Of a DNA stretch of 9,545 bases, positions 1 through 9,545 are shown in pieces; positions within the stretch are counted from its first letter, which is position 1; the number at the start of each line of letters is the position of its first letter. The notes below the pieces were generated by a model, which saw only the letters and a list, made by a program, of their open reading frames with translations, had not been told where the DNA came from and ran no database searches. A program made the position numbers and the translations under genes. The DNA is from a virus. Taxonomy: Duplodnaviria > Heunggongvirae > Uroviricota > Caudoviricetes. Location: IMG/VR virus record IMGVR_UViG_2778261641_000014, positions 1 to 9,545 of that record. One strand, 5' to 3'.

Positions 1-44
1 AGTCTGCAAAGAAACATCAAAGAAATAAACGATAATCCCATCAA

Positions 45-70
45 CCCGGCCACCGAGCCGGGTTTTCTTT
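45..70 (+). terminator. Rho-independent terminator, probably ending an upstream immunity-region transcript
   Basis: Hairpin CCCGGC (45-50) / loop CACCGA / GCCGGG (57-62) followed by TTTTCTTT (63-70). Confidence 0.5.
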
Positions 71-239
71 GCCTCTCGCCCAAAAAAAACACATAACCAA
101 TTGTATTTATTGATGTAACTCGCTAAACCATACAGTTCTGATCCCTGCCGCATAACCTTCATCAGCCACATTTTCAAAAATAAATTTCCTTATATATCAG
201 AATCATACTTCGTAGAGTTAATAAATCACCAAAATTCGT

Positions 240-272
240 ACCAATAGTTCTTGATAATGTCGAACTATTGGT
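240..272. promoter_or_regulatory. Perfect 11-bp-arm inverted repeat; candidate operator (OL-like) or RNA hairpin
   Basis: ACCAATAGTTC (240-250) and its exact reverse complement GAACTATTGGT (262-272), separated by 11 bp. It lies about 80 bp upstream of boxB and overlaps a sigma70-like hexamer pair. Confidence 0.3.
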
Positions 273-279
273 TCATTAT
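251..279 (+). promoter_or_regulatory. Candidate pL-like sigma70 promoter (-35 TTGATA, 17-bp spacer, -10 CATTAT)
   Basis: TTGATA at 251-256 and CATTAT at 274-279 with a 17-bp spacer, embedded in the palindrome and upstream of boxB and the N-like gene. The hexamers are weak and the call rests on position alone. Confidence 0.25.
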
Positions 280-348
280 TATCGTCATCAGCAGGACGCA
301 TTACTCACCATGGCGGTGAATATACAACGATTCAAACATGAATCTACG

Positions 349-363
349 GCGCTGACAAAGCGC
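349..363 (+). promoter_or_regulatory. nutL boxB RNA hairpin (P22-type, GACAA pentaloop)
   Basis: GCGCTGACAAAGCGC is a 5-bp stem with a GACAA loop and matches the phage P22 boxB sequence as I recall it. It sits about 130 nt upstream of an N-like ORF that carries an arginine-rich N-terminus. No clear boxA (CGCTCTTA-like) was found upstream. Confidence 0.7.
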
Positions 364-491
364 AATAACCAAAGTGAACTTTGGGGTGAATGCAGAAGCT
401 AATCTTCTCGGCGGAGGCGCTTTGCAATGATTACGCGACCGGAGTTAGTCGCACGGCTGTATTCACCGCCAAAGTTCATCAGGAGGTCTAT

Positions 492-875
492 ATGACACGC
501 AGAACTCAGTTCAAAGGCAATTCACGTTCTCGTCGTCGTGAGCGTTTAAAGGCAAAGGCATTAGCTAACGGCGTACTGGCCCGCGAAGAAGCAATAAGTT
601 CAGAAGTATTACACCGCCCTACTCTAAGCAGAGCGCAGATTCAGGCTAAAGGTACTCACGAAACGCCTGAGCGCATAGAAGACGCTAAGCCAATTAAGTT
701 CATGGCACAGGACGTGATCTGGCAACAGAAAGAATACAGACGTAATCTGGAGAGAGCGGCCATTGTGTACGCGAATGAGTTTGGACATAAGCAACCAGAA
801 ACTGGTGTATGTCTTCCAAATGTAGCTCTTTACGCAGCAGGCTACCGGAAATCAAAACAACTGACGGCGAGGTAA
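492..875 (+). CDS. N-like transcription antitermination protein (P22 gp24 family)
   Basis: Strong RBS AGGAGG (481-486) 5 nt before ATG 492. Arginine-rich motif NSRSRRRERLKAKA near the N-terminus; C-terminus LPNVALYAAGYRKSKQLTAR closely resembles the P22 gp24 C-terminus as I recall it. The track ORF starting at 390 is a 5' over-extension that would include boxB. Confidence 0.75.
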   Translation: MTRRTQFKGNSRSRRRERLKAKALANGVLAREEAISSEVLHRPTLSRAQIQAKGTHETPERIEDAKPIKFMAQDVIWQQKEYRRNLERAAIVYANEFGHKQPETGVCLPNVALYAAGYRKSKQLTAR

Positions 876-1103
876 GTGGTGAATCAGACATACATTCCAT
901 CATGCTTGAGAAATCTGCCAAAGCAGAAAGCAAAGCCCCGCAAGCAAGCCATAAAGGACGCTAAGTCAGAGGTTATTGATCAAGCAATACAATTGCTCAG
1001 GAAGGAGTTAAGAAGTGGCAAGCTCGAAGGAATGATGATGCCCTATCAGCGCGGATATCTATCGGCGATTAGTAAGTTGGAAGTATTGAAGAGTGAATTA
1101 TGA
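876..1103 (+). CDS. Hypothetical small basic protein (75 aa), immediate-early position
   Basis: ORF beginning at GTG 876 directly after the N-like stop, with GAGGT 866-870 as a possible RBS. Lysine-rich N-terminus. No family recognised. Confidence 0.45.
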   Translation: MVNQTYIPSCLRNLPKQKAKPRKQAIKDAKSEVIDQAIQLLRKELRSGKLEGMMMPYQRGYLSAISKLEVLKSEL

Positions 1104-1167
1104 ACTATCTGGAATTTCCGGATGGTTCATTGTTTTGGCAGCAAACCAATTATTTGAGAGCTGATAC

Positions 1168-1410
1168 ATGAGAGTAAAAACTATGGGCGCAAGCCCATTA
1201 AGCGGTCGTATTTTTCAAGGAACATTAAACACTGAAAAAGGAATGTGGGTAGGAAAGAAAGAAGATGTCACCGATCAAGCAGTTAAGGCAGTAGCCGAAC
1301 ACCTGATGATAAAAGACCAGAAATATGCATACGAAACGAAGGATGGCAAATGGCTGATAATAAGTCATCAACTGGTTGATAAATTACCAGAAGAGTTTGT
1401 TGATGGTTAA
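1168..1410 (+). CDS. Hypothetical protein (80 aa; alternative start at ATG 1183)
   Basis: ORF with a GAGAG motif upstream, lying between the N-like gene and the first intrinsic terminator. No family recognised. Confidence 0.45.
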   Translation: MRVKTMGASPLSGRIFQGTLNTEKGMWVGKKEDVTDQAVKAVAEHLMIKDQKYAYETKDGKWLIISHQLVDKLPEEFVDG

Positions 1411-1448
1411 ATTTGCTTTGGAATAAGCAACAGAATAAACACTGCACT

Positions 1449-1476
1449 GTGTATTCATTCCAACGAGTGAATACAC
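1449..1476. repeat. Perfect 9-bp-arm inverted repeat with 10-nt spacer (function unknown)
   Basis: GTGTATTCA (1449-1457) and TGAATACAC (1468-1476) are exact reverse complements. Located in the intergenic region about 60 bp upstream of the tL1-like terminator. Confidence 0.6.
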
Positions 1477-1538
1477 GGAGCAATGTCGCTCGTAACTAAA
1501 CAGGAGCCGACTTGTTCTGATTGTTGGAAATCTTCTTT

Positions 1539-1565
1539 GCCCTCCAATGTGAGGGCGATTTTTTA
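1539..1565 (+). terminator. Rho-independent terminator (tL1-like, inside the pL operon)
   Basis: GCCCTC (1539-1544) / loop CAATGT / GAGGGC (1551-1556), then GATTTTTTA. In lambdoid phages a terminator at this position is bypassed by N antitermination. Confidence 0.65.
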
Positions 1566-1584
1566 TCTATGAGGATATGAATAG

Positions 1585-1953
1585 ATGTCAAACATCAAAA
1601 AATACATCATTGATTACGACTGGAAAGCATCAATAGAAATTGAAATCGACCATGACGTAATGACAGAGGGAAAACTTCACCAGATTAATAATTTCTGGTC
1701 AGACTCTGAATACCGACTCAATAAACATGGCTCTGTATTAAATGCTGTATTAATCATGCTGGCGCAACATGCTCTGCTTATAGCAATTTCGAAAGACTTA
1801 AATGCATATGGTGTTGTTTGTGAGTTCGACTGGGATGATGGAAATGGTCAGGAAGGATGGCCTCCAATGGATGGTAGTGAAGGAATAAGAATTGCCGATA
1901 TCGATACATCAGGAATATTTGATTCAGATGATATGACTATCAAAGCCGCCTGA
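1585..1953 (+). CDS. Hypothetical strongly acidic protein (122 aa), low-GC gene; candidate anti-restriction / anti-defence (DNA-mimic-like)
   Basis: RBS GAGGA 1571-1575 before ATG 1585. The translation has about 22 Asp/Glu against 9 Lys/Arg, with an Asp-rich C-terminal third. The gene is visibly AT-rich compared with its neighbours and occupies the ral / gene-17 slot between N and cIII. Confidence 0.6.
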   Translation: MSNIKKYIIDYDWKASIEIEIDHDVMTEGKLHQINNFWSDSEYRLNKHGSVLNAVLIMLAQHALLIAISKDLNAYGVVCEFDWDDGNGQEGWPPMDGSEGIRIADIDTSGIFDSDDMTIKAA

Positions 1954-2028
1954 GCGCGGCTTTACCGCATACCAATAATGCTTCACGAGAGGCATTTTCG
2001 TTATGCAATCAAATATAAGGAGTTACCC

Positions 2029-2163
2029 ATGATGCACTTTCAGCTCGCGGGTAGCGGCGTCATGTCCGCTTTCTACCCGCACGAATCTGAATTATCACGC
2101 CGAGTTAAACAATTAATCAGAGCAGCAAAGAAACAACTGGAGGCGTTATGCGCAATGAAATAG
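2029..2163 (+). CDS. cIII-like protein (FtsH inhibitor family), 44 aa
   Basis: RBS AAGGAG 2017-2022 before ATG 2029. The translation MMHFQLAGSGVMSAFYPHESELSRRVKQLIRAAKKQLEAL follows the lambda CIII pattern (M-x-Y/F-x-I/L-AG ... P-x-ES-x-L-x-R) as I recall it. The upstream ATG at 1978 lacks an RBS. Confidence 0.5.
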   Translation: MMHFQLAGSGVMSAFYPHESELSRRVKQLIRAAKKQLEALCAMK

Positions 2164-2300
2164 CCATCAATCACCAGATGCTTCGTGCAGCACAGAACAA
2201 AGCAGTAATAGCCAGATTTATTGGTGATTCAAAAATGTGGCTTGAAGCAAATAAAGCGATGAAATCAGCTATCAACCTTCCGTGGTATCGCAGGAAATGA
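2148..2300 (+). CDS. Small protein (50 aa), tentatively Kil-like cell-division inhibitor
   Basis: ORF not in the supplied track because it is under 60 aa. ATG 2148 is preceded by GGAGG 2139-2143 and overlaps the end of the cIII-like ORF. The translation MRNEIAINHQMLRAAQNKAVIARFIGDSKMWLEANKAMKSAINLPWYRRK contains a FIGD.KM..EA motif that I recall from lambda Kil; this is a memory-based, tentative match. Confidence 0.4.
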   Translation: MRNEIAINHQMLRAAQNKAVIARFIGDSKMWLEANKAMKSAINLPWYRRK

Positions 2301-2467
2301 GCTTTACAGATAACTGGTCAGACGAAGAATTCATTCGTCAGATGAAAGAATTAATCGGTAACGAAGGAGATATTCATGTCACTTGCAACCACAGTGAAGG
2401 AGAGCAAGTTACAGAGACGCATGTACACGCAGCAGGCGTTAATGTATCGCCAGAAGGGAGATCGTGA
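2297..2467 (+). CDS. Hypothetical small acidic protein (56 aa)
   Basis: ATG 2297 overlaps the stop of the preceding ORF (ATGA) and is in the same frame as track ORF 2282-2467. It sits just upstream of erf, where P22 carries arf, but I cannot confirm similarity. Confidence 0.35.
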   Translation: MSFTDNWSDEEFIRQMKELIGNEGDIHVTCNHSEGEQVTETHVHAAGVNVSPEGRS

Positions 2468-2556
2468 AGGTGTTCGCGTATTTTTAAATGCGGCAAAGAC
2501 TGAAGTATTAAATCAGCGTTATTTACTTGGGCCGTGTCCATTCTGAGAACAATCAT

Positions 2557-3162
2557 ATGAGCAAAGAATTTTACGCAAGACTGGCAGCTATTCAGGAGAA
2601 TCTGAACGCGCCAAAGAATCAGTACAACTCATTCGGCAAATATAAATACAGAAGCTGCGAAGACATTCTTGAAGGCGTTAAGCCGTTACTGAATGGCCTG
2701 TTTTTATCAATCAGCGATGAAGTTGTGTTGATTGGTGATCGGTATTACGTGAAAGCCACGGCAACTATTACCGATGGCGAAAACAGTCATACAGCAACCG
2801 CTCTTGCACGAGAGGAAGAAAGCAAGAAAGGAATGGATTCTGCACAAGTTACTGGAGCTACAAGCTCTTATGCACGCAAGTATTGCCTCAATGGTTTGTT
2901 CGGCATTGATGATGCGAAAGATGCAGATACAGACGAGCATAAACATCAGCAGAGCGCAGCAGCAAAGCAATCAAAACCATCACATACACCTGAACAGGTT
3001 CTAAAAGCATTCACTGACGCAGCATTGCAGAAAAACACCGTGGAAGAGCTTAAACAGGCGTTCGCCAAAGCGTGGAAGATGCTCGAAGGCACACCGGAGC
3101 AGCAAAAAGCGCAGGACGTTTACAACATCAGACGAGACGAATTAGAAGGAGCGGCTGCTTAA
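2557..3162 (+). CDS. erf: Erf-family single-strand annealing protein
   Basis: The translation from ATG 2557 (MSKEFYARLAAIQENLNAPKNQYNSFGKYKYRSCEDILEGVKPLL ... YARKYCLNGLFGIDDAKDADTDE) closely matches P22 Erf as I recall it. The track's TTG start at 2527 is probably an over-extension. Confidence 0.85.
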   Translation: MSKEFYARLAAIQENLNAPKNQYNSFGKYKYRSCEDILEGVKPLLNGLFLSISDEVVLIGDRYYVKATATITDGENSHTATALAREEESKKGMDSAQVTGATSSYARKYCLNGLFGIDDAKDADTDEHKHQQSAAAKQSKPSHTPEQVLKAFTDAALQKNTVEELKQAFAKAWKMLEGTPEQQKAQDVYNIRRDELEGAAA

Positions 3163-3545
3163 TGGCACATTCGATTACTGTAAGACTAAACAAGCCCGCA
3201 AGAGAGTTTCAGGCCGGGGAAAATATCGGATTCAACATCCGTGCTGGCGTTCAGTATTACGATCGCCAGACAAAAAAGAAAGAATGGACAAACTACAGCG
3301 CCGTTGTATTTGCCAAGCCGGGAGCGCAAGCGGATTACTACCGTAGTGTTCTTGTTGAAGGAGGCATTGTAGAAATTACCGGAGAAAACATCAGGGTTGA
3401 TGTTTATCAGGGGCAAAATGGTCAATCAATCACTCTTGAATTACTGAATGCAAAGATTGGATTTGCAACTTCAGGAAACAGCCAACAGCAGCAAAGTAGC
3501 AATCATCAAAATCATCCTGAATACGACGATTCAATTCCCTTCTAG
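3162..3545 (+). CDS. ssb: Phage single-stranded DNA-binding protein (SSB-like, OB fold, acidic C-terminal tip)
   Basis: ATG 3162 overlaps the erf stop (TAATG). The translation ends in the canonical SSB tail ...EYDDSIPF (compare E. coli SSB ...DDDIPF) after a Q/N/S-rich linker. The track start at 3072 is an in-frame over-extension. Confidence 0.8.
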   Translation: MAHSITVRLNKPAREFQAGENIGFNIRAGVQYYDRQTKKKEWTNYSAVVFAKPGAQADYYRSVLVEGGIVEITGENIRVDVYQGQNGQSITLELLNAKIGFATSGNSQQQQSSNHQNHPEYDDSIPF

Positions 3546-3568
3546 ATTAGCAAAATAAGGATTCCATT

Positions 3569-3865
3569 ATGCCAGCGCCTCTGTATGGTGCGGATGACCC
3601 GCGCCGCTGTTCCGGCAATTCCGTATCGGAGGTGCTGGATAAATTCAGAAAAAACTACGACCTGATAATGTCGCTACCGCAGGAAACGAAAGAGGAAAAG
3701 GAATTTCGCCACTGTATATGGCTTGCAGAGAAAGAAGAACGCGAGCGAATTTACCAGACATCAATCCGACCATTCCGCAAAGCCACATATACCCACTTCC
3801 CTGAATATATCGACCCGCGCCTGCGTAATTACCGCTCACGCTATGGCGCTATCAGTAATGACTGA
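3569..3865 (+). CDS. Hypothetical protein (98 aa)
   Basis: RBS AAGGA 3557-3561 before ATG 3569. It is the first ORF after ssb. No family recognised. Confidence 0.55.
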
Positions 3866-3875
3866 GGAATTTACC

Positions 3876-4040
3876 ATGAGAGGACTTGCATACAATCCCG
3901 GCATTCTTCCGGCAGAAATGATTATTCGCCAACGCGTAAAGCCAATGCCATCGAGAGAGGAATTGCTTAAGAGAAATAGTTTCGGTTCTGTTAATGACAA
4001 CAGATATCTGAATGCGATGTGGCGGAGTGGGAAAAAATGA
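3876..4040 (+). CDS. Hypothetical small protein (54 aa)
   Basis: RBS GAGGA 3864-3868 before ATG 3876, in frame with track ORF 3723-4040 (which overlaps the previous gene and is probably over-extended). Its stop overlaps the next start (ATGA). Confidence 0.4.
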
Positions 4041-4519
4041 AACAAATGTCACTAATTGAGATGGATGGATTTCTGAAAGGTAAATGCATCCCAAGTGATT
4101 TAAAGGTTAACGAAACAAATGCTGAATATCTGGTGCGTAAGTTCGGTGAACTTGAATCAAAACTAGAAACGGCGTTGCGTGAGTGTCGTTCTGCTGGAAT
4201 CACGATTGATAACCTTGAGGCTAAATGCGCGAAGATGGCTGCTGAAAATACCTCGCTTAAGCAATCTGAGAAGGAATTTAATGACTTTTGTCGTGAGGAG
4301 TTTAGCGAATGGGAAGATGATGTTACTGAAACCCCAGCCACCGATGCTTTCCTGGCTGAAGTACGGGCGCAGGGGGTAGAGATGTACGCAGATAATCTCG
4401 AAAACGGAGCAGATGACGCAGAACGAGGTGGTTTTGATTATGCCGTTAAGTTTCTACGCAGTGAAGCGTCTGGTGTACGTTTGTTCGCCGACCAGCTTCG
4501 CAAAGGAGGCAACCAGTGA
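4037..4519 (+). CDS. Hypothetical coiled-coil protein with acidic C-terminal half (160 aa)
   Basis: ATG 4037 overlaps the upstream stop. The central region ([12 protein letters not shown] ... [23 protein letters not shown]) looks heptad-like. Track ORF 4019-4519 is the same frame with an earlier start. Confidence 0.55.
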
Positions 4520-4815
4520 CTGTATGTCTTATTGATAAACGTCGACGTGGGCAACAAATACCATCTGTTGAAATGCCGAATCACACATGGTTTTGCGTAC
4601 TTGATATCGATGGTATGGATACGTTGATCGACACTCGTCATTACTGCGATACCGCAACAGCTACTCCTGCAAAAGCAAAGAAAATGGCTGCTCTGATAGA
4701 AAACTGGACTCCACCTGATGGTTGGTGCAATGGGAATGATCGAGATTGGCACGAAAAAATGAAGGGCTATATCTGCGATTTCTTACGTAAATGCAACGGA
4801 TTCAGGGTGATGTGA
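4516..4815 (+). CDS. Hypothetical Cys/His/Trp-rich protein (99 aa)
   Basis: GTG 4516 is preceded by AGGAGG 4505-4510 at 5-nt spacing and overlaps the upstream stop (GTGA). No family recognised. Confidence 0.5.
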   Translation: MTVCLIDKRRRGQQIPSVEMPNHTWFCVLDIDGMDTLIDTRHYCDTATATPAKAKKMAALIENWTPPDGWCNGNDRDWHEKMKGYICDFLRKCNGFRVM

Positions 4816-4816
4816 C

Positions 4817-5290
4817 ATGAACAAGATTGACTATCAGGCACTGCGTGAAGCGGCAGAGAAAGCCGGTGAAGATAAGTGGCAGGCTAAAAAAATAAATGGT
4901 GATTTTTTCGTTATTCGTCACGGTAGTTATACAAGACAGCATGGCTACACATCGTATCAACCCATTGCGGAGATTGATTGTAAGCCAGTCCGGGATTTTG
5001 TTGCCAAGGCTAATCCGGCTACCGTGCTGGAATTACTGGATGAACGGGAAAGGAACCAGCAATACATCAAACTCCGCGATCAGGAGAACGAGGAAATTGC
5101 GCTAACGGTAGGGAAACTGCGTGTTGAGCTGGAAGCCGCAGAGAAGCGCATTGCTGAGCTGCAGTTGCGGGAGGTTGTGCTTCCGCAATGCTATAGCATG
5201 TTGCATCGCGTCGATTTTGACGAGCCTTACCACACTGAAATGGTTTACAGCAGCATCAGGTTCTTGAGGCACTGCACAACGCTGGAATAA
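4817..5290 (+). CDS. Ead/Ea22-like family protein (157 aa)
   Basis: N-terminal ...QALREAAEKA... and central coiled-coil ...AAEKRIAELQ... resemble motifs (QALRE, KRIAEL) that I recall from Ead/Ea22-like prophage proteins. It sits in the ea region between the recombination genes and xis. Confidence 0.6.
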   Translation: MNKIDYQALREAAEKAGEDKWQAKKINGDFFVIRHGSYTRQHGYTSYQPIAEIDCKPVRDFVAKANPATVLELLDERERNQQYIKLRDQENEEIALTVGKLRVELEAAEKRIAELQLREVVLPQCYSMLHRVDFDEPYHTEMVYSSIRFLRHCTTLE

Positions 5291-5321
5291 ACGTCACCGA
5301 AGCAGGTAAAGGAGAGGCATC

Positions 5322-5891
5322 ATGAGCACTATTCCCAAAGAACGTCTGGAACAATTAGCATCTGGAAACGCATGGTATTGCGTTCAAGATGACGAAGCGG
5401 CTGAGCTGGCGCGTATCGCGCTGGCATCGCTCGAAGCGGAGCCATATGGATATGTGCATAAAGCGGCATATGAGAAAACAGGCAGTTGCGGGTTGTCGAA
5501 TGACCGTGAAGCCTATCGATACAGTTCAACTCACGTGGCCGTTTACACCGCACCGCCAGCGCCGGTATCTGTGCCTGCTGCGATGGAAATGGATGATGAC
5601 TTTGACAGCGCGTTTGAACACGGAAAAGCTGTCGGATGGAACGCCTGTCGTGCCGCTATGCTTCAGAGTCAAGGTAATTGCATTAAGGATGGTTGGATAA
5701 GCTGTAGTGATCGAATGCCGGAAGACACCAAAATGTTACTGGCATTTAGTCAAGGTGAAATCGTGGCCGCATATTGGAACTGGGTTGTAAATCCAATTGA
5801 TTACAAAAAATATAGAGCTTTCACGTATTTATCAGGAAATATCTTGGATGACGTAACTCACTGGATGCCGCTACCAGAGCCTCCACTTTGA
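5322..5891 (+). CDS. DUF551-like prophage protein (189 aa)
   Basis: RBS AAGGAGAGG 5307-5315 before ATG 5322. The C-terminal region WISCSDRMPEDTK ... VTHWMPLPEPP matches the DUF551 signature as I recall it. Confidence 0.65.
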   Translation: MSTIPKERLEQLASGNAWYCVQDDEAAELARIALASLEAEPYGYVHKAAYEKTGSCGLSNDREAYRYSSTHVAVYTAPPAPVSVPAAMEMDDDFDSAFEHGKAVGWNACRAAMLQSQGNCIKDGWISCSDRMPEDTKMLLAFSQGEIVAAYWNWVVNPIDYKKYRAFTYLSGNILDDVTHWMPLPEPPL

Positions 5892-5987
5892 AAGCGAAGC
5901 TTATACATATCTTTTACATCAGCAATCTATTGTTAATCTCCAATCAATGTTACGTTGTCATCTCACTCATGCTTTGGAGGTAGTGAT

Positions 5988-6167
5988 ATGTCTTGTCCAA
6001 AATGCGGTTCTGGAAATATTGCAAAAGAAAAAACAATGCGTGGATGGTCTGGTGATTATGTGTGCTGCGATTGCGGATACAACGACTCTAAAGACGCATT
6101 TGGAGAGCGTGGTAAAAACGAGTTTGTCAAAATTAATAAAGATCGCGAAGGCAACGGAAAAAGCTAA
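5988..6167 (+). CDS. Zinc-ribbon miniprotein (60 aa; two CxxC pairs)
   Basis: RBS GGAGG 5976-5980 before ATG 5988. The translation is MSCPKCGSG ... CCDCGY, with a lysine-rich tail. Track ORF 5955-6167 is the same frame with an upstream start. Confidence 0.5.
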   Translation: MSCPKCGSGNIAKEKTMRGWSGDYVCCDCGYNDSKDAFGERGKNEFVKINKDREGNGKS

Positions 6168-6230
6168 TTTATTTATTCATATATGAAAACAATGTAACCA
6201 ATATTCGATTTGAAGAACTGAAAGAACACC

Positions 6231-6254
6231 AAGCCGCCTGATGGCGGTTTTTTT
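6231..6254 (+). terminator. Rho-independent terminator
   Basis: AAGCCGCC / loop TGAT / GGCGGTT followed by a run of 7 T residues (6248-6254). Confidence 0.7.
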
Positions 6255-6268
6255 ATTGGAGACAAGAA

Positions 6269-6613
6269 ATGTCAGATTTGGCTATGAAGGTTTTGAAATG
6301 GCAATCGACTGGCGATGTTGGCATCAGTAGCGCAACTCTTGCCTCAATCGCATGTGGACTGAAAAAGAATATCTATGGTCATAGCTTCGGTGCTCCACAT
6401 GACGCAGCAGATTTCCGACGATGCGTTGCGCTTGTCGAGCAGATTCCAGAAATCAGGGATTCATTCGACAAGGTTGCAAAGCGCGTTCCGGCATTCAAAG
6501 GCATCCTCAACGAATGGGATTCTCTCGTTGCTCTGTTGAAGTCTGAAATGAAGATACACGGAAACAAAGCACCAGAGACTTACAGAAGAATTAGCGAGTT
6601 ACGCAAGGACTAA
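6269..6613 (+). CDS. Hypothetical protein (114 aa) immediately upstream of xis
   Basis: RBS GGAGA 6257-6261 before ATG 6269. It lies between a strong terminator and the excisionase gene. No family recognised. Confidence 0.55.
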   Translation: MSDLAMKVLKWQSTGDVGISSATLASIACGLKKNIYGHSFGAPHDAADFRRCVALVEQIPEIRDSFDKVAKRVPAFKGILNEWDSLVALLKSEMKIHGNKAPETYRRISELRKD

Positions 6614-6702
6614 CCACAGCCTCACACTCGATGAGGCCTGTTCATTTCTCAAGATATCCAGACCTACCGCAATAATACCAACTCAATAAATGGAGATTCC
6701 AA

Positions 6703-7050
6703 GTGGAAGAAGAAATCTTCACTCGTGAAGAGGCAGCATCGTATCTGAAGGTAGACAAAGGCACTATCACGCAGTGGATACGAAGTGGACGACTTCAGGC
6801 CGCAAAGATAAATCCAGATAAACCTAAAAGTCCATATCGCATTTGCAAGTCAGACTGCATTGCGGCGCTTAAGTCTGTGAGACACAATAGCGCGGTGAAT
6901 GCGGTTGATGTGCAGGAGGTTAAAGCATGTCAATCAAACTACGCGGTGGCACGTGGCACTGTGATTTCGTCGCGCCAGATGGATCAAGAGTTAGACGCTC
7001 TCTTGAAACATCGGACAAAAGGCAAGCGCAAGAACTTCACGATCGTCTGA
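6703..7050 (+). CDS. xis: Excisionase (HTH-type Xis / AlpA-like DNA-binding domain), overlapping int
   Basis: GTG 6703 with TGGAGA upstream. The N-terminal FTREEAASYLKVDKGTITQWIRSGRLQAAKI is a typical excisionase helix-turn-helix. The ORF runs 124 nt into int in another frame, as is usual for lambdoid xis-int pairs; the true 3' end is uncertain. Confidence 0.6.
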   Translation: MEEEIFTREEAASYLKVDKGTITQWIRSGRLQAAKINPDKPKSPYRICKSDCIAALKSVRHNSAVNAVDVQEVKACQSNYAVARGTVISSRQMDQELDALLKHRTKGKRKNFTIV

Positions 7051-8087
7051 AAGCAGAAGCGTGGAGAGTAAAAAATCTCGGGGAATCACCGAAAAAGCTA
7101 TTCAAGGAAGCCTGCATACGGTGGCTGCGTGAGAAATCGGATAAGAAGTCCATTGATGATGACAAGAGCATTATATCGTTCTGGATGTTGCACTTCAGAG
7201 AAACCATTCTCTCTGACATAACAACAGAAAAAATAATGGAGGCGGTAGACGGGATGGAAAACCGCCGCCATCGCCTGAACTGGGAGATGAGCCGGGACAG
7301 GTGTTTGCGGCTTGGCAAGCCAGTGCCGGAGTATAAACCAAAGCTTGCAAGCAAAGGAACGAAGACGAGGCATCTGGCAATACTTCGCGCCATTCTCAAT
7401 ATGGCTGTTGAATGGGGATGGCTTGACAGGGCACCCAAAATATCAACACCACGCGTTAAGAATGGACGCATCAGATGGCTTACAGAGGAGGAATCGAAGC
7501 GCCTGTTTGCAGAAATTGCTCCTCATTTCTTCCCTGTGGTCATGTTTGCAATCACGACAGGCCTTCGCCGTTCCAACGTTACAGACCTTGAGTGGTCACA
7601 GGTCGATCTGGATAAGAAAATGGCATGGATGCACCCTGATGAAACAAAAGCTGGCAATGCGATCGGAGTTCCTCTTAACGAAACCGCATGCCAGATATTA
7701 AGAAAACAGCAGGGGCTCCATAAGAGATGGGTATTTGTCCACACCAAACCTGCCTACCGAAGCGACGGAACAAAAACAGCAGCGGTAAGGAAGATGAGAA
7801 CCGACAGCAACAAGGCATGGAAGGGAGCGTTAAAGCGGGCAGGCATTAGCAACTTCCGCTTCCATGACCTGAGGCATACCTGGGCAAGCTGGCTGGTTCA
7901 GTCCGGTGTCTCTCTTCTTGCACTTAAAGAGATGGGAGGATGGGAAACTCTCGAAATGGTTCAAAGATACGCCCACCTTTCAGCCGGGCATCTCACCGAG
8001 CACGCGAGCAAAATCGATGCGATTATAAGTCGCAATGGCACAAATACGGCACAAGAGGAGAACGTAGTTTACTTAAATGTGAGGTAA
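6927..8087 (+). CDS. int: Tyrosine site-specific integrase (P22 Int / DLP12 IntD family), 386 aa
   Basis: Strong RBS AGGAGG 6914-6919 before ATG 6927. Catalytic-domain motifs TGLRRSN ... HDLRHTWASWLVQSGV ... LKEMGGWETLEMVQRYAHL fit the R...HxxR...Y pattern. The gene ends 14 bp before the tRNA 3' end. Confidence 0.9.
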   Translation: MSIKLRGGTWHCDFVAPDGSRVRRSLETSDKRQAQELHDRLKAEAWRVKNLGESPKKLFKEACIRWLREKSDKKSIDDDKSIISFWMLHFRETILSDITTEKIMEAVDGMENRRHRLNWEMSRDRCLRLGKPVPEYKPKLASKGTKTRHLAILRAILNMAVEWGWLDRAPKISTPRVKNGRIRWLTEEESKRLFAEIAPHFFPVVMFAITTGLRRSNVTDLEWSQVDLDKKMAWMHPDETKAGNAIGVPLNETACQILRKQQGLHKRWVFVHTKPAYRSDGTKTAAVRKMRTDSNKAWKGALKRAGISNFRFHDLRHTWASWLVQSGVSLLALKEMGGWETLEMVQRYAHLSAGHLTEHASKIDAIISRNGTNTAQEENVVYLNVR

Positions 8088-8101
8088 CTTATTGATTTAA
8101 A

Positions 8102-8177
8102 TGGTGCCGATAATAGGAGTCGAACCTACGACCTTCGCATTACGAATGCGCTGCTCTACCAACTGAGCTATATCGGC
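8102..8177 (-). tRNA. thrW: tRNA-Thr (anticodon CGU), thrW-type; prophage attachment site
   Basis: The reverse complement of 8102-8177 folds as a cloverleaf: acceptor GCCGATA, D-arm GCTC/GAGC, anticodon loop TTCGTAA (anticodon CGT), T-arm GGTTCGACTCC, 3' ACCA. 76 nt, matching E. coli thrW as I recall it. Confidence 0.9.
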
Positions 8178-8230
8178 CCTGAAAGGACATGTTCACGAAC
8201 GTGAATCACGGTGGACAAGGTTAAAACTAA

Positions 8231-8291
8231 CCGGGCGATGCGTCAATGGCCTTGTGAATCAAATGGCTACTTTTGCATCACCCGGTTTTAT
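8231..8291 (-). terminator. Possible proA terminator: long-range imperfect inverted repeat with flanking T-rich runs
   Basis: CCGGGCGATGC (8231-8241) pairs with GCATCACCCGG (8275-8285) with one mismatch and about 33 nt between the arms; T-rich sequence follows on both strands. The structure is atypical, so confidence is low. Confidence 0.35.
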
Positions 8292-9545
8292 TTACGCACG
8301 AATGGTGTAATCACCAATGCCGATCCACTTGTAAGTGGTCAGTGCTTCCAGCCCCATTGGGCCACGCGCGTGGAGTTTTTGTGTGCTTACCGCCACTTCC
8401 GCACCCAGACCAAACTGGCCGCCGTCGGTAAAACGCGTAGAGGCGTTAACGTAAACAGCGGACGAATCCACTTCGTTAACAAAACGCTGGGCGTTGCGCA
8501 TATCGCGGGTCAGGATCGCATCGGAGTGTTGTGTGCCGTGTTCACGAATATGGGCGATGGCATCGTCAAGATCGCTGACGATTTTGACGTTCAAATCTAA
8601 TGACAGAAACTCATCGTCATACTCTTCGGCTTTAACAGCAACCACCTTCGCAGGGCCTGCCTGCAACTGCGCCAGTGCAGCTGCATCTGCGTGTAATGTC
8701 ACGCCGCTTTCCGCCATTTGTTTGCTTAATGCGGGCAGGAAGCTATCGGCGATGTTTTTATTCACCAGCAACGTTTCAACCGTATTACATGTGCTCGGAC
8801 GCTGAGTTTTCGCGTTGACGATCACTTTTAATGCTTCAGCGATCTCTACACTTTCATCAACGTAAATATGGCATACGCCTATACCACCTGTGATCACCGG
8901 GATTGTCGACTGTTCACGGCACAGTTTATGCAAACCAGCGCCACCACGCGGGATCAGCATGTCGATGTATTTATCCATACGCAGCATTTCACTGACCAGC
9001 GCACGGTCAGGATTATCAATCGCCTGCACGGCACCCGCCGGTAAGCCGCAGGATTTCAGGGCGTCCTGAATCACCGCCACCGTTGCAGCGTTAGTGCGAC
9101 ACGTTTCTTTGCCACCGCGCAGGATCACCGCATTACCGGTTTTCAGGCACAGCGAAGCGACATCAACCGTCACGTTCGGGCGCGCTTCATAAATCACGCC
9201 AATAACCCCCAGCGGTACGCGACGACGCTCAAGACGCAGGCCGCTGTCCAGTACGCTGCCATCGATTACCTGCCCCACCGGATCGGCGAGGTTACACACC
9301 TGGCGCACATCATCGGCAATGCCTTTCAGCCGTGCGGGCGTCAGTGCCAGACGGTCAAGCATCGCTTCGCCAAGGCCATTGGCACGCGCGTCAGCAACAT
9401 CCTGGGCGTTAGCGTTGAGGATGATTTCGCTTTGTGCTTCCAGTTCATCGGCGATTTTTTCCAGCACGCGATTTTTTTCGCGGCTGGAGAGTTGCGCTAA
9501 TTTATACGAGGCTTGCTTCGCGGCAATGCCCATTTGTTCCAGCAT
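8292..9545 (-). CDS. proA: Gamma-glutamyl phosphate reductase (glutamate-5-semialdehyde dehydrogenase), complete, 417 aa
   Basis: Full-length minus-strand ORF whose translation ([38 protein letters not shown] ... [12 protein letters not shown]) is recognisable as E. coli ProA. The start codon is the last three bases of the window. Confidence 0.95.

Follow-up and report, generated by a model that had tools for sequence, protein, structure and literature searches.

Do four genes whose start and stop codons overlap or abut make up one functional unit, or do they only follow one another in the same operon? In this work we address this question for a stretch of viral DNA of 9,545 nucleotides (Caudoviricetes; positions 1 to 9,545 of IMG/VR record IMGVR_UViG_2778261641_000014), hereafter called the window, which is the left (pL) arm of a P22-like lambdoid prophage integrated at thrW/proA. 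Four open reading frames (ORFs), called here O1 to O4, are packed at 3876–5290, and a preliminary description of this DNA had proposed that coupling this tight implies co-function or a fixed stoichiometry. About 400 related loci were examined, IMG/VR loci being fetched for each anchor gene and searched with all window proteins, and they do not bear this proposal out: the genes assort independently, the sequence that joins them is a generic linker, O3 is found alone elsewhere, and Oad2, a homologue of O2, works alone. The most probable explanation is that O1 to O4 stand next to each other in the early-left operon of the prophage as accessory (ea) genes that assort independently, with O2 as a likely stand-alone inhibitor.

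O1, 3876–4040, + strand: 54 amino acids (AA), ATG start
O2, 4037–4519, + strand: 160 AA
O3, 4516–4815, + strand: 99 AA, GTG start
O4, 4817–5290, + strand: 157 AA

The geometry of the block is exactly as first described. The O2 ATG (4037–4039) overlaps the O1 stop codon (4038–4040) in an ATGA (4037–4040), the O3 GTG (4516–4518) overlaps the O2 stop codon (4517–4519) in a GTGA (4516–4519), with an AGGAGG at 4504–4509, 6 nt before the GTG, and a single nucleotide separates the O3 stop codon from the O4 start. All four ORFs are real genes with family matches, including the three that had been thought to lack a recognizable family. O1 matches Pfam PF10930 (DUF2737) over its whole length (101.6 bits, cutoff 25) and also phrog_1117; O2 matches phrog_614 at 4e-61 and is of the EaE/Oad2 type; O3 matches PF24881 (DUF7739) over AA 1–93 (76.1 bits, cutoff 27); and O4 matches PF13935 (Ead/Ea22; 95.7 bits, cutoff 27), with AA 3–113 aligned to positions 2–114 of the 139 positions of the model. 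NCBIfam gave no match for O1, O2, O3 or O4, the PADLOC defence-system models gave none for any of seven window proteins tested, and PDB-chain sequence searches with all four proteins returned nothing usable, the sole match being a sigma factor at E = 0.3. Within the block, ORFs on the minus strand gave no match to any family. O2 and O4 were considered as possible paralogues, which was rejected as the two window proteins have no detectable similarity.

O1 is a basic protein (isoelectric point, pI, 11), 98% identical to HK446 gp28 and 72% to P22 ORF56, and its other equivalents are HK620 hkaI and HK97 gp38. O3 is a near-neutral alpha/beta protein that occupies an optional slot. It had been described as rich in Cys, His and Trp, which is correct for its composition (six Cys, three His and four Trp); however, only one Cys is invariant among its homologues, so that O3 has no conserved metal site. 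No functional work on DUF2737, DUF7739 or hkaG/H/I was found in the literature, and the accessory-gene screens of Silas et al. tabulated the neighbourhood, these genes not being among those tested.

Independent assortment of the four genes

The genes are colinear in all related loci: abc2 and O1 are followed by O2, O3, O4 and a DUF551 gene, each of which may be missing. Every subset occurs, the commonest being O1-O2-O4, and the full four-gene set is a small minority: it is present in 5/69 loci anchored on O1, 12/50 anchored on O2, 15/57 on O3 and 5/54 on O4. With abc2 as a neutral neighbouring anchor, only 4 of 63 non-identical loci have the full set and 11 different subsets are found, among them an O1-O4 and an O1-only class. 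At the DNA level, parts of the 1,415-bp block match 263 phage records, none of which (0/263) holds 80% or more of it in one place, and this proportion is reached in only 3 of 2,062 matching Escherichia coli genomes. The four genes thus do not travel as a unit. They do occur independently of each other, but the alternative that had been set against the cassette, shuffled order with no co-occurrence, does not describe them either, as order is conserved and O1 and O2 travel together.

The proposal of a single co-functional cassette, in which the four gene products are stoichiometrically coupled and act as a complex or in one pathway, draws on the start/stop overlaps and the co-transcription, which are real, on the recurrence of the arrangement in an E. 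coli JNQH497 prophage and in 12 near-identical IMG/VR loci, and on weak positive associations of O2 with O3 and with O4. We regard it as very improbable, the neighbourhood data having largely refuted it. In addition to the occurrence of all subsets, the junctions are the same whatever the partners, O3 lies alone in unrelated phage modules, Oad2 functions alone and comes from a phage, HK446, without O3 and O4, and O4 is frameshifted in the window itself.

The distribution of O3 illustrates this independence. The gene is found in 20 complete phage genome records, compared with 296 for O2. In a survey that drew on species representatives, distant DUF7739 homologues (38–43% identity) lie between tail-sheath/tail-tube genes and tail-assembly chaperone/tape-measure genes of myovirus-type prophages, in Mixta, Erwinia (E. 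dacicola), Buttiauxella, Pseudocitrobacter, Intestinirhabdus and Symbiopectobacterium (loci L325–L331, around positions 3470–4700 in each), with no relative of O1, O2 or O4 nearby. The Pantoea and Edwardsiella homologues have different neighbours again. The position in the tail module is moron-like and unrelated to the early operon. A 76%-identical DUF7739 gene was also seen, with xis and int, on a 6-kb contig labelled Micromonospora (L321, NZ_JBFAML010000060.1); these enterobacterial lambdoid genes are probably a contamination of the Micromonospora assembly.

A second alternative, in which frameshifts broke up one larger gene into these ORFs, is suggested by the frameshifted 3' end of O4 and by rare database proteins that fuse DUF2737 to DUF7739; it is the least credible of all those considered here and is refuted for O1 to O3. 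Each ORF is a separate, full-length and widely conserved family with its own start codon and ribosome-binding site, and the frameshift affects only the last 16 codons of O4. The fusions are singletons of 153–154 AA (P0003, P0004 and P0007), which seem to run on through the O1>O3 linker and probably stem from frameshifts or assembly errors, not from true fusion. As for O4, it has a single G, at 5250, in the sequence 5249–5251, where 11/11 related loci have GG and none has the window version, and its DNA aligns with that of HK140 at 99% identity with one gap. As a consequence of this 1-nt deletion, 16 out-of-frame codons replace the last 26 ancestral residues and the C-terminal domain is not intact; the repaired frame ends at a TGA (5323–5325) that overlaps the DUF551 start at 5322. 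The deletion is private to the window and may be either genuine or due to a sequencing error. O4 also carries a central deletion, which is a natural variant, its junction being common to four other loci (L313–L315 and L320). A comparison of O4 with the solved lambda Ea22 C-terminal domain gave no sequence match. O4 is an Ead/Ea22-type coiled-coil protein, frameshift-damaged here.

Linkers at the gene junctions

The O2/O3 joint of the window is made of an 18-nt sequence, which has one copy in the window:

Junction linker AAAGGAGGCAACCAGTGA, 4502–4519, + strand: 18 nt

This linker encodes the ...(A)QLRKGGNQ* tail of the upstream protein and also contains a Shine–Dalgarno site and the GTG at which the downstream gene starts, with the stop codon overlapping it. 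A search of all fetched loci found it 239 times, with 149 unique flank pairs; 21 upstream and 15 downstream sequence classes flank it, in 68 combinations. The sequence AAAGGAGGCAAcCAGTGA is present alike at O2>O3, O2>O4, O1>O3 and O1>O4 junctions, which have cgcAAAGGAGGCAAcCAGTGA in common. Furthermore, the O1 protein, which normally ends in ...MWRSGKK*, ends in ...MWRKGGKQ* in loci where O3 or O4 comes directly after it, indicating that the joint falls inside the linker. O3>O4 and O3>DUF551 junctions have another sequence in common, ...ttcagggtgatgtgayATG. The spacing of each type of junction is largely constant:

O1>O2: −4 nt at 129/132 unique junctions
O2>O3: −4 nt at 33/48 unique junctions
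O3>O4: +1 nt at 47/47 unique junctions
O2>O4: −4 nt at 49/69 unique junctions
O1>O3: −4 nt at 17/20 unique junctions
O1>O4: −4 nt at 5/7 unique junctions

Since the same linker is found between many partners, the coupling is not partner-dependent. Nor is tight packing peculiar to O1–O4, as it runs through other parts of the operon: kil and gp33 overlap by 4 nt, erf and gp31 by 1 nt, abc2 and O1 are 10 nt apart, the N-like gene and the next gene 0 nt, and in relatives O4 and the DUF551 gene are spaced by −4 (an ATGA overlap) or +1 nt. Megablast breakpoints, in phage records and E. coli genomes, fall at block positions 356, 453–487, 644 and 973–988.

These properties suggest how the junctions might work. 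In each linker the final codons of the upstream gene contain the ribosome-binding site and the start codon of the downstream gene, which would ensure compact and probably coupled translation, presumably by translational reinitiation, whatever the neighbour. The same linker could serve as a patch of homology for the exchange of modules between phages, in other words for linker-mediated recombination. Overlapping start and stop codons in lambdoid early operons are no sign of co-function; the overlaps seen here belong to generic linkers, which would double as exchange joints.

O2 and the EaE/Oad2 family

O2 is an acidic protein (pI 4.6) that is, on sequence grounds, a new allele of the EaE/Oad2 family, a family present in 296 complete phage genome records. 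It is 95.6% identical to HK620 hkaH, 89% to HK75 gp28 and 52.9% to HK446 gp27 (BLASTP, residues 1–160 against 1–175, E = 1e-56), and is 44% identical to P22 EaE over residues 60–157; HK97 gp37 is a further counterpart. An AlphaFold2 model of O2 is all-helical but of a confidence too low for use (predicted local distance difference test score, pLDDT, 53).

HK446 gp27 was recently named Oad2, for OLD anti-defence 2 (bioRxiv 10.64898/2026.07.10.737580). This preprint describes Gp33 of phages HK75 and HK446 as a trigger of P2 OLD, an abortive-infection tRNase, and reports that Oad2 binds OLD directly and is alone enough to block it; it further relates Oad2 to P22 EaE and mentions HNH or Ead/Ea22 fusions in some phages. 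The relationships to EaE, to proteins with an HNH name and to Ead fusions were all recovered in our searches. In the HK446 RefSeq record, gp33, gp32 (Erf), gp31 and gp30 (Abc2) agree with the numbering of the preprint, and gp27, a protein of 175 AA annotated as 'similar to HK97 gp37', is preceded by a DUF2737 gene (gp28) and directly followed by xis and int, without O3 or O4. The hotspot location is shared, as Gp33, Erf, gp31 and Abc2 lie directly upstream in the window as in HK446. The window thus encodes both an OLD trigger, its Gp33 being identical to that of HK75, and an Oad2-family gene.

The O2 protein can be divided into a constant N-terminus (AA 1–68), a variable cassette A (AA 69–97), a hinge, a variable cassette B (AA 115–150) and the constant ...QLRKGGNQ tail.

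O2 hinge, 4328–4378, + strand: conserved, with invariant alignment columns, separating cassettes A and B

The fetched loci contain 146 distinct O2-type ORFs, of which 90 have a recognizable hinge; sorting these 90 by cassette gives 15 classes for A, 21 for B and 43 combinations of the two. Cassette A of the window is of a class paired with 14 B classes, and its cassette B of a class paired with 6 A classes. The hinge DNA has a mean pairwise identity of 89% among 84 O2-type ORFs with differing flanking cassettes, some E. coli genomes have isolated megablast matches to block positions 453–487, the hinge, alone, and the breakpoints in E. coli genomes (block positions 356, 453–487 and 612–644) agree with the cassette borders. 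These observations identify the hinge as an apparent intragenic recombination anchor. The first 64 codons (4037–4228) behave differently: the protein is about 97% identical across relatives, compared with a mean of 84% and a minimum of 62% for the DNA, which argues that purifying selection, and not recent exchange alone, conserves the protein.

In the explanation that we favour, O2 would most likely be a stand-alone inhibitor that binds an OLD-type immune effector of the host or of a prophage; the constant N-terminal helical region may provide a scaffold, and the two shuffled cassettes may set target specificity. O1 is linked to O2 genetically, and O3 would be an optional, self-sufficient, moron-like gene. 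Several points count against this explanation. Sampling took the 80 best hits for each anchor; most of these loci come from E. coli isolates, and they are not independent of each other. O2 is weakly and positively associated with O3 (odds ratio 5.8, p = 0.03) and with O4 (odds ratio 4.3, p = 0.013) in the abc2-anchored loci, with no correction for phylogeny or for the six tests made. The linkage of O1 to O2 is near-absolute and might reflect co-function. As the preprint gives no accession, Oad2 was equated with RefSeq F846_gp27 from three indications: the numbering of the genes, the 54% identity that we could reproduce, and the EaE, HNH and Ead relationships. Finally, the Oad2 homologue of HK75, 54% identical to Oad2, is reported not to inhibit OLD (bioRxiv 10.64898/2026.07.10.737580); we find HK75 gp28 to be 53.9% identical to HK446 gp27, which reproduces the published value, and because the window allele is 89% identical to this non-inhibitory homologue, its activity against P2 OLD is doubtful.

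The linkage of O1 to O2 raises the possibility that these two alone are a functional pair, with the basic DUF2737 protein as chaperone, regulator or co-inhibitor of the acidic EaE/Oad2-type protein, and with O3 and O4 as unrelated passengers. O1 precedes the O2-type N-terminus with an ATGA overlap in 58/58 distinct proteins, and the spacing of this junction is also near-constant (listed above). No other pairing in the block is stable. The pair is kept in P22 (ORF56-eaE), HK97, HK620, HK140 and HK446 amid different neighbours, and the two proteins have opposite charges (pI 11 versus pI 4.6). On the other hand, Oad2 alone is reported to be enough for OLD inhibition and binding (bioRxiv 10.64898/2026.07.10.737580), O1 often leads straight to O3 or Ead genes without O2 (27 unique junctions), and the linkage may merely reflect that there is no recombination linker between O1 and O2. 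We consider such a pair unlikely, though worth keeping in mind.

A different function can also be envisaged, in which these genes are lysis–lysogeny modulators like lambda Ea22 and not anti-defence factors. O4 belongs to the Ead/Ea22 Pfam family, Ea22 of lambda and of Stx phages favours lysogeny (PMC7093339, PMC10834534), an effect known for these Ea22 proteins only, and some O2 variants pass the threshold of the Ead_Ea22 model (P0141, 30.7 bits). This seems to us a rather improbable account of the block: in sequence searches O2 and O4 of the window have no detectable similarity to each other or to any solved structure, the one direct functional finding made on the O2 family concerns defence inhibition, and the extreme diversity of cassettes suits an arms race better. 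The two roles are not mutually exclusive.

To return to independently assorting genes with O2 as an inhibitor, a bolder form of this explanation can be proposed, on which we would place little weight for the present. The EaE/Oad2 family, including the window allele, would be a combinatorial specificity system, with a constant scaffold and at least 15 and at least 21 cassette classes, each combination neutralizing a different allele or family of immune effectors, of the ABC-ATPase/TOPRIM type (OLD, Gabija, PARIS-like) or other, and with DUF2737 as an obligate partner. If this were true, the hinge and the KGGNQ linker would be selected recombination anchors for re-assorting anti-defence specificities. 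The architecture of the family, two shuffled cassettes between conserved anchors, in any case lends itself to a testable mapping of cassettes to immune targets.

Prophage context and comparison with known systems

On the + strand the window starts with an N-like gene, three unknown genes, cIII, kil, a 56-AA gene, erf, a 127-AA gene and abc2; the four ORFs follow, then the DUF551 gene, an EaG-like zinc-ribbon gene, a 114-AA gene, xis and int, with tRNA-Thr(CGU) and proA beyond. The genes that define the context are:

Gp33 homologue, 2297–2467, + strand: 56 AA, 100% identical to HK75 gp33
Erf, 2557–3162, + strand: Pfam ERF match
gp31 homologue, 3162–3545, + strand: 127 AA, 99% identical to HK446 gp31
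Abc2, 3569–3865, + strand: Pfam Anti-RecBCD_p2 match
DUF551, EaA-like gene, 5322–5891, + strand: Pfam PF04448, the next accessory gene after O4
EaG-like zinc-ribbon gene, 5955–6167, + strand
int, 6927–8087: adjoined by xis
tRNA-Thr(CGU), 8102–8177: next to int and xis
proA, 8292–9545, minus strand

The upstream region (2297–3865) is an HK75/HK446-type recombination locus composed of Gp33, Erf, gp31 and Abc2, in which the Gp33 ATG overlaps the kil stop codon (ATGA, 2297–2300). The N-like ORF is mechanically listed as 161 AA (390–875); the N family profile covers residues 33–160 only, and an internal ATG near 492 is probably the true start. No promoter- or terminator-like site was found on the + strand between 2700 and 6230, and the first convincing hairpin followed by a T-run 3' of the accessory block is at 6231–6250 (8 bp, 5 GC pairs), just past the EaG-like zinc-ribbon gene. 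The DNA that follows the Gp33-Erf-gp31-Abc2 locus is hypervariable; O1–O4 lie in this stretch and are co-transcribed early.

The placement of the block in the nonessential ea region of a lambdoid phage, a reservoir of accessory genes, is supported by alignment with the P22 genome, in which the block corresponds to abc2-ORF56-eaE-(eaF slot)-eaD-eaI-eaA-eaG. The HK620 equivalents are hkaI (O1), hkaH (O2) and hkaG (O4), O3 being absent, and in Sf6 gene 23 (DUF2737) leads directly to gene 22, of the O3 type. Early operons of P22-like phages have been described as highly mosaic (PMC2629481). The stretch from abc2 to xis in P22-like prophages appears to be a place to seek more defence inhibitors.

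Gene by gene, the block resembles known systems to different extents. O2 is like Oad2 (HK446 gp27) in its N-terminal 64 residues, hinge and KGGNQ tail, which are almost identical, and in its slot, which follows DUF2737 on the 3' side of the Gp33-Erf-gp31-Abc2 locus. It differs from Oad2 in both variable cassettes, the window allele being of the HK75/HK620/HK97 type (89–96% identical). O3 is like Sf6 gene 22 and HK75 gp27, with 92–93% identity and the same slot after DUF2737 or EaE. O4 is like the Ead/Ea22 family (P22 EaD, HK620 hkaG and lambda Ea22) in its PF13935 match, its coiled-coil centre and its location in the accessory region from exo/abc2 to xis, but unlike HK620 hkaG and HK140 gp35 it lacks about 60 central residues. 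Lastly, the linker recalls the short conserved boundary sequences at mosaic joints of lambdoid phages, a model of Susskind & Botstein (1978) and Clark et al. (2001) as relayed in PMC3233612: it is short, conserved, located exactly at gene borders and flanked by unrelated modules. It departs from this model in that it is defined as an 18-nt unit and that an equivalent anchor, the O2 hinge, is also present inside a gene.

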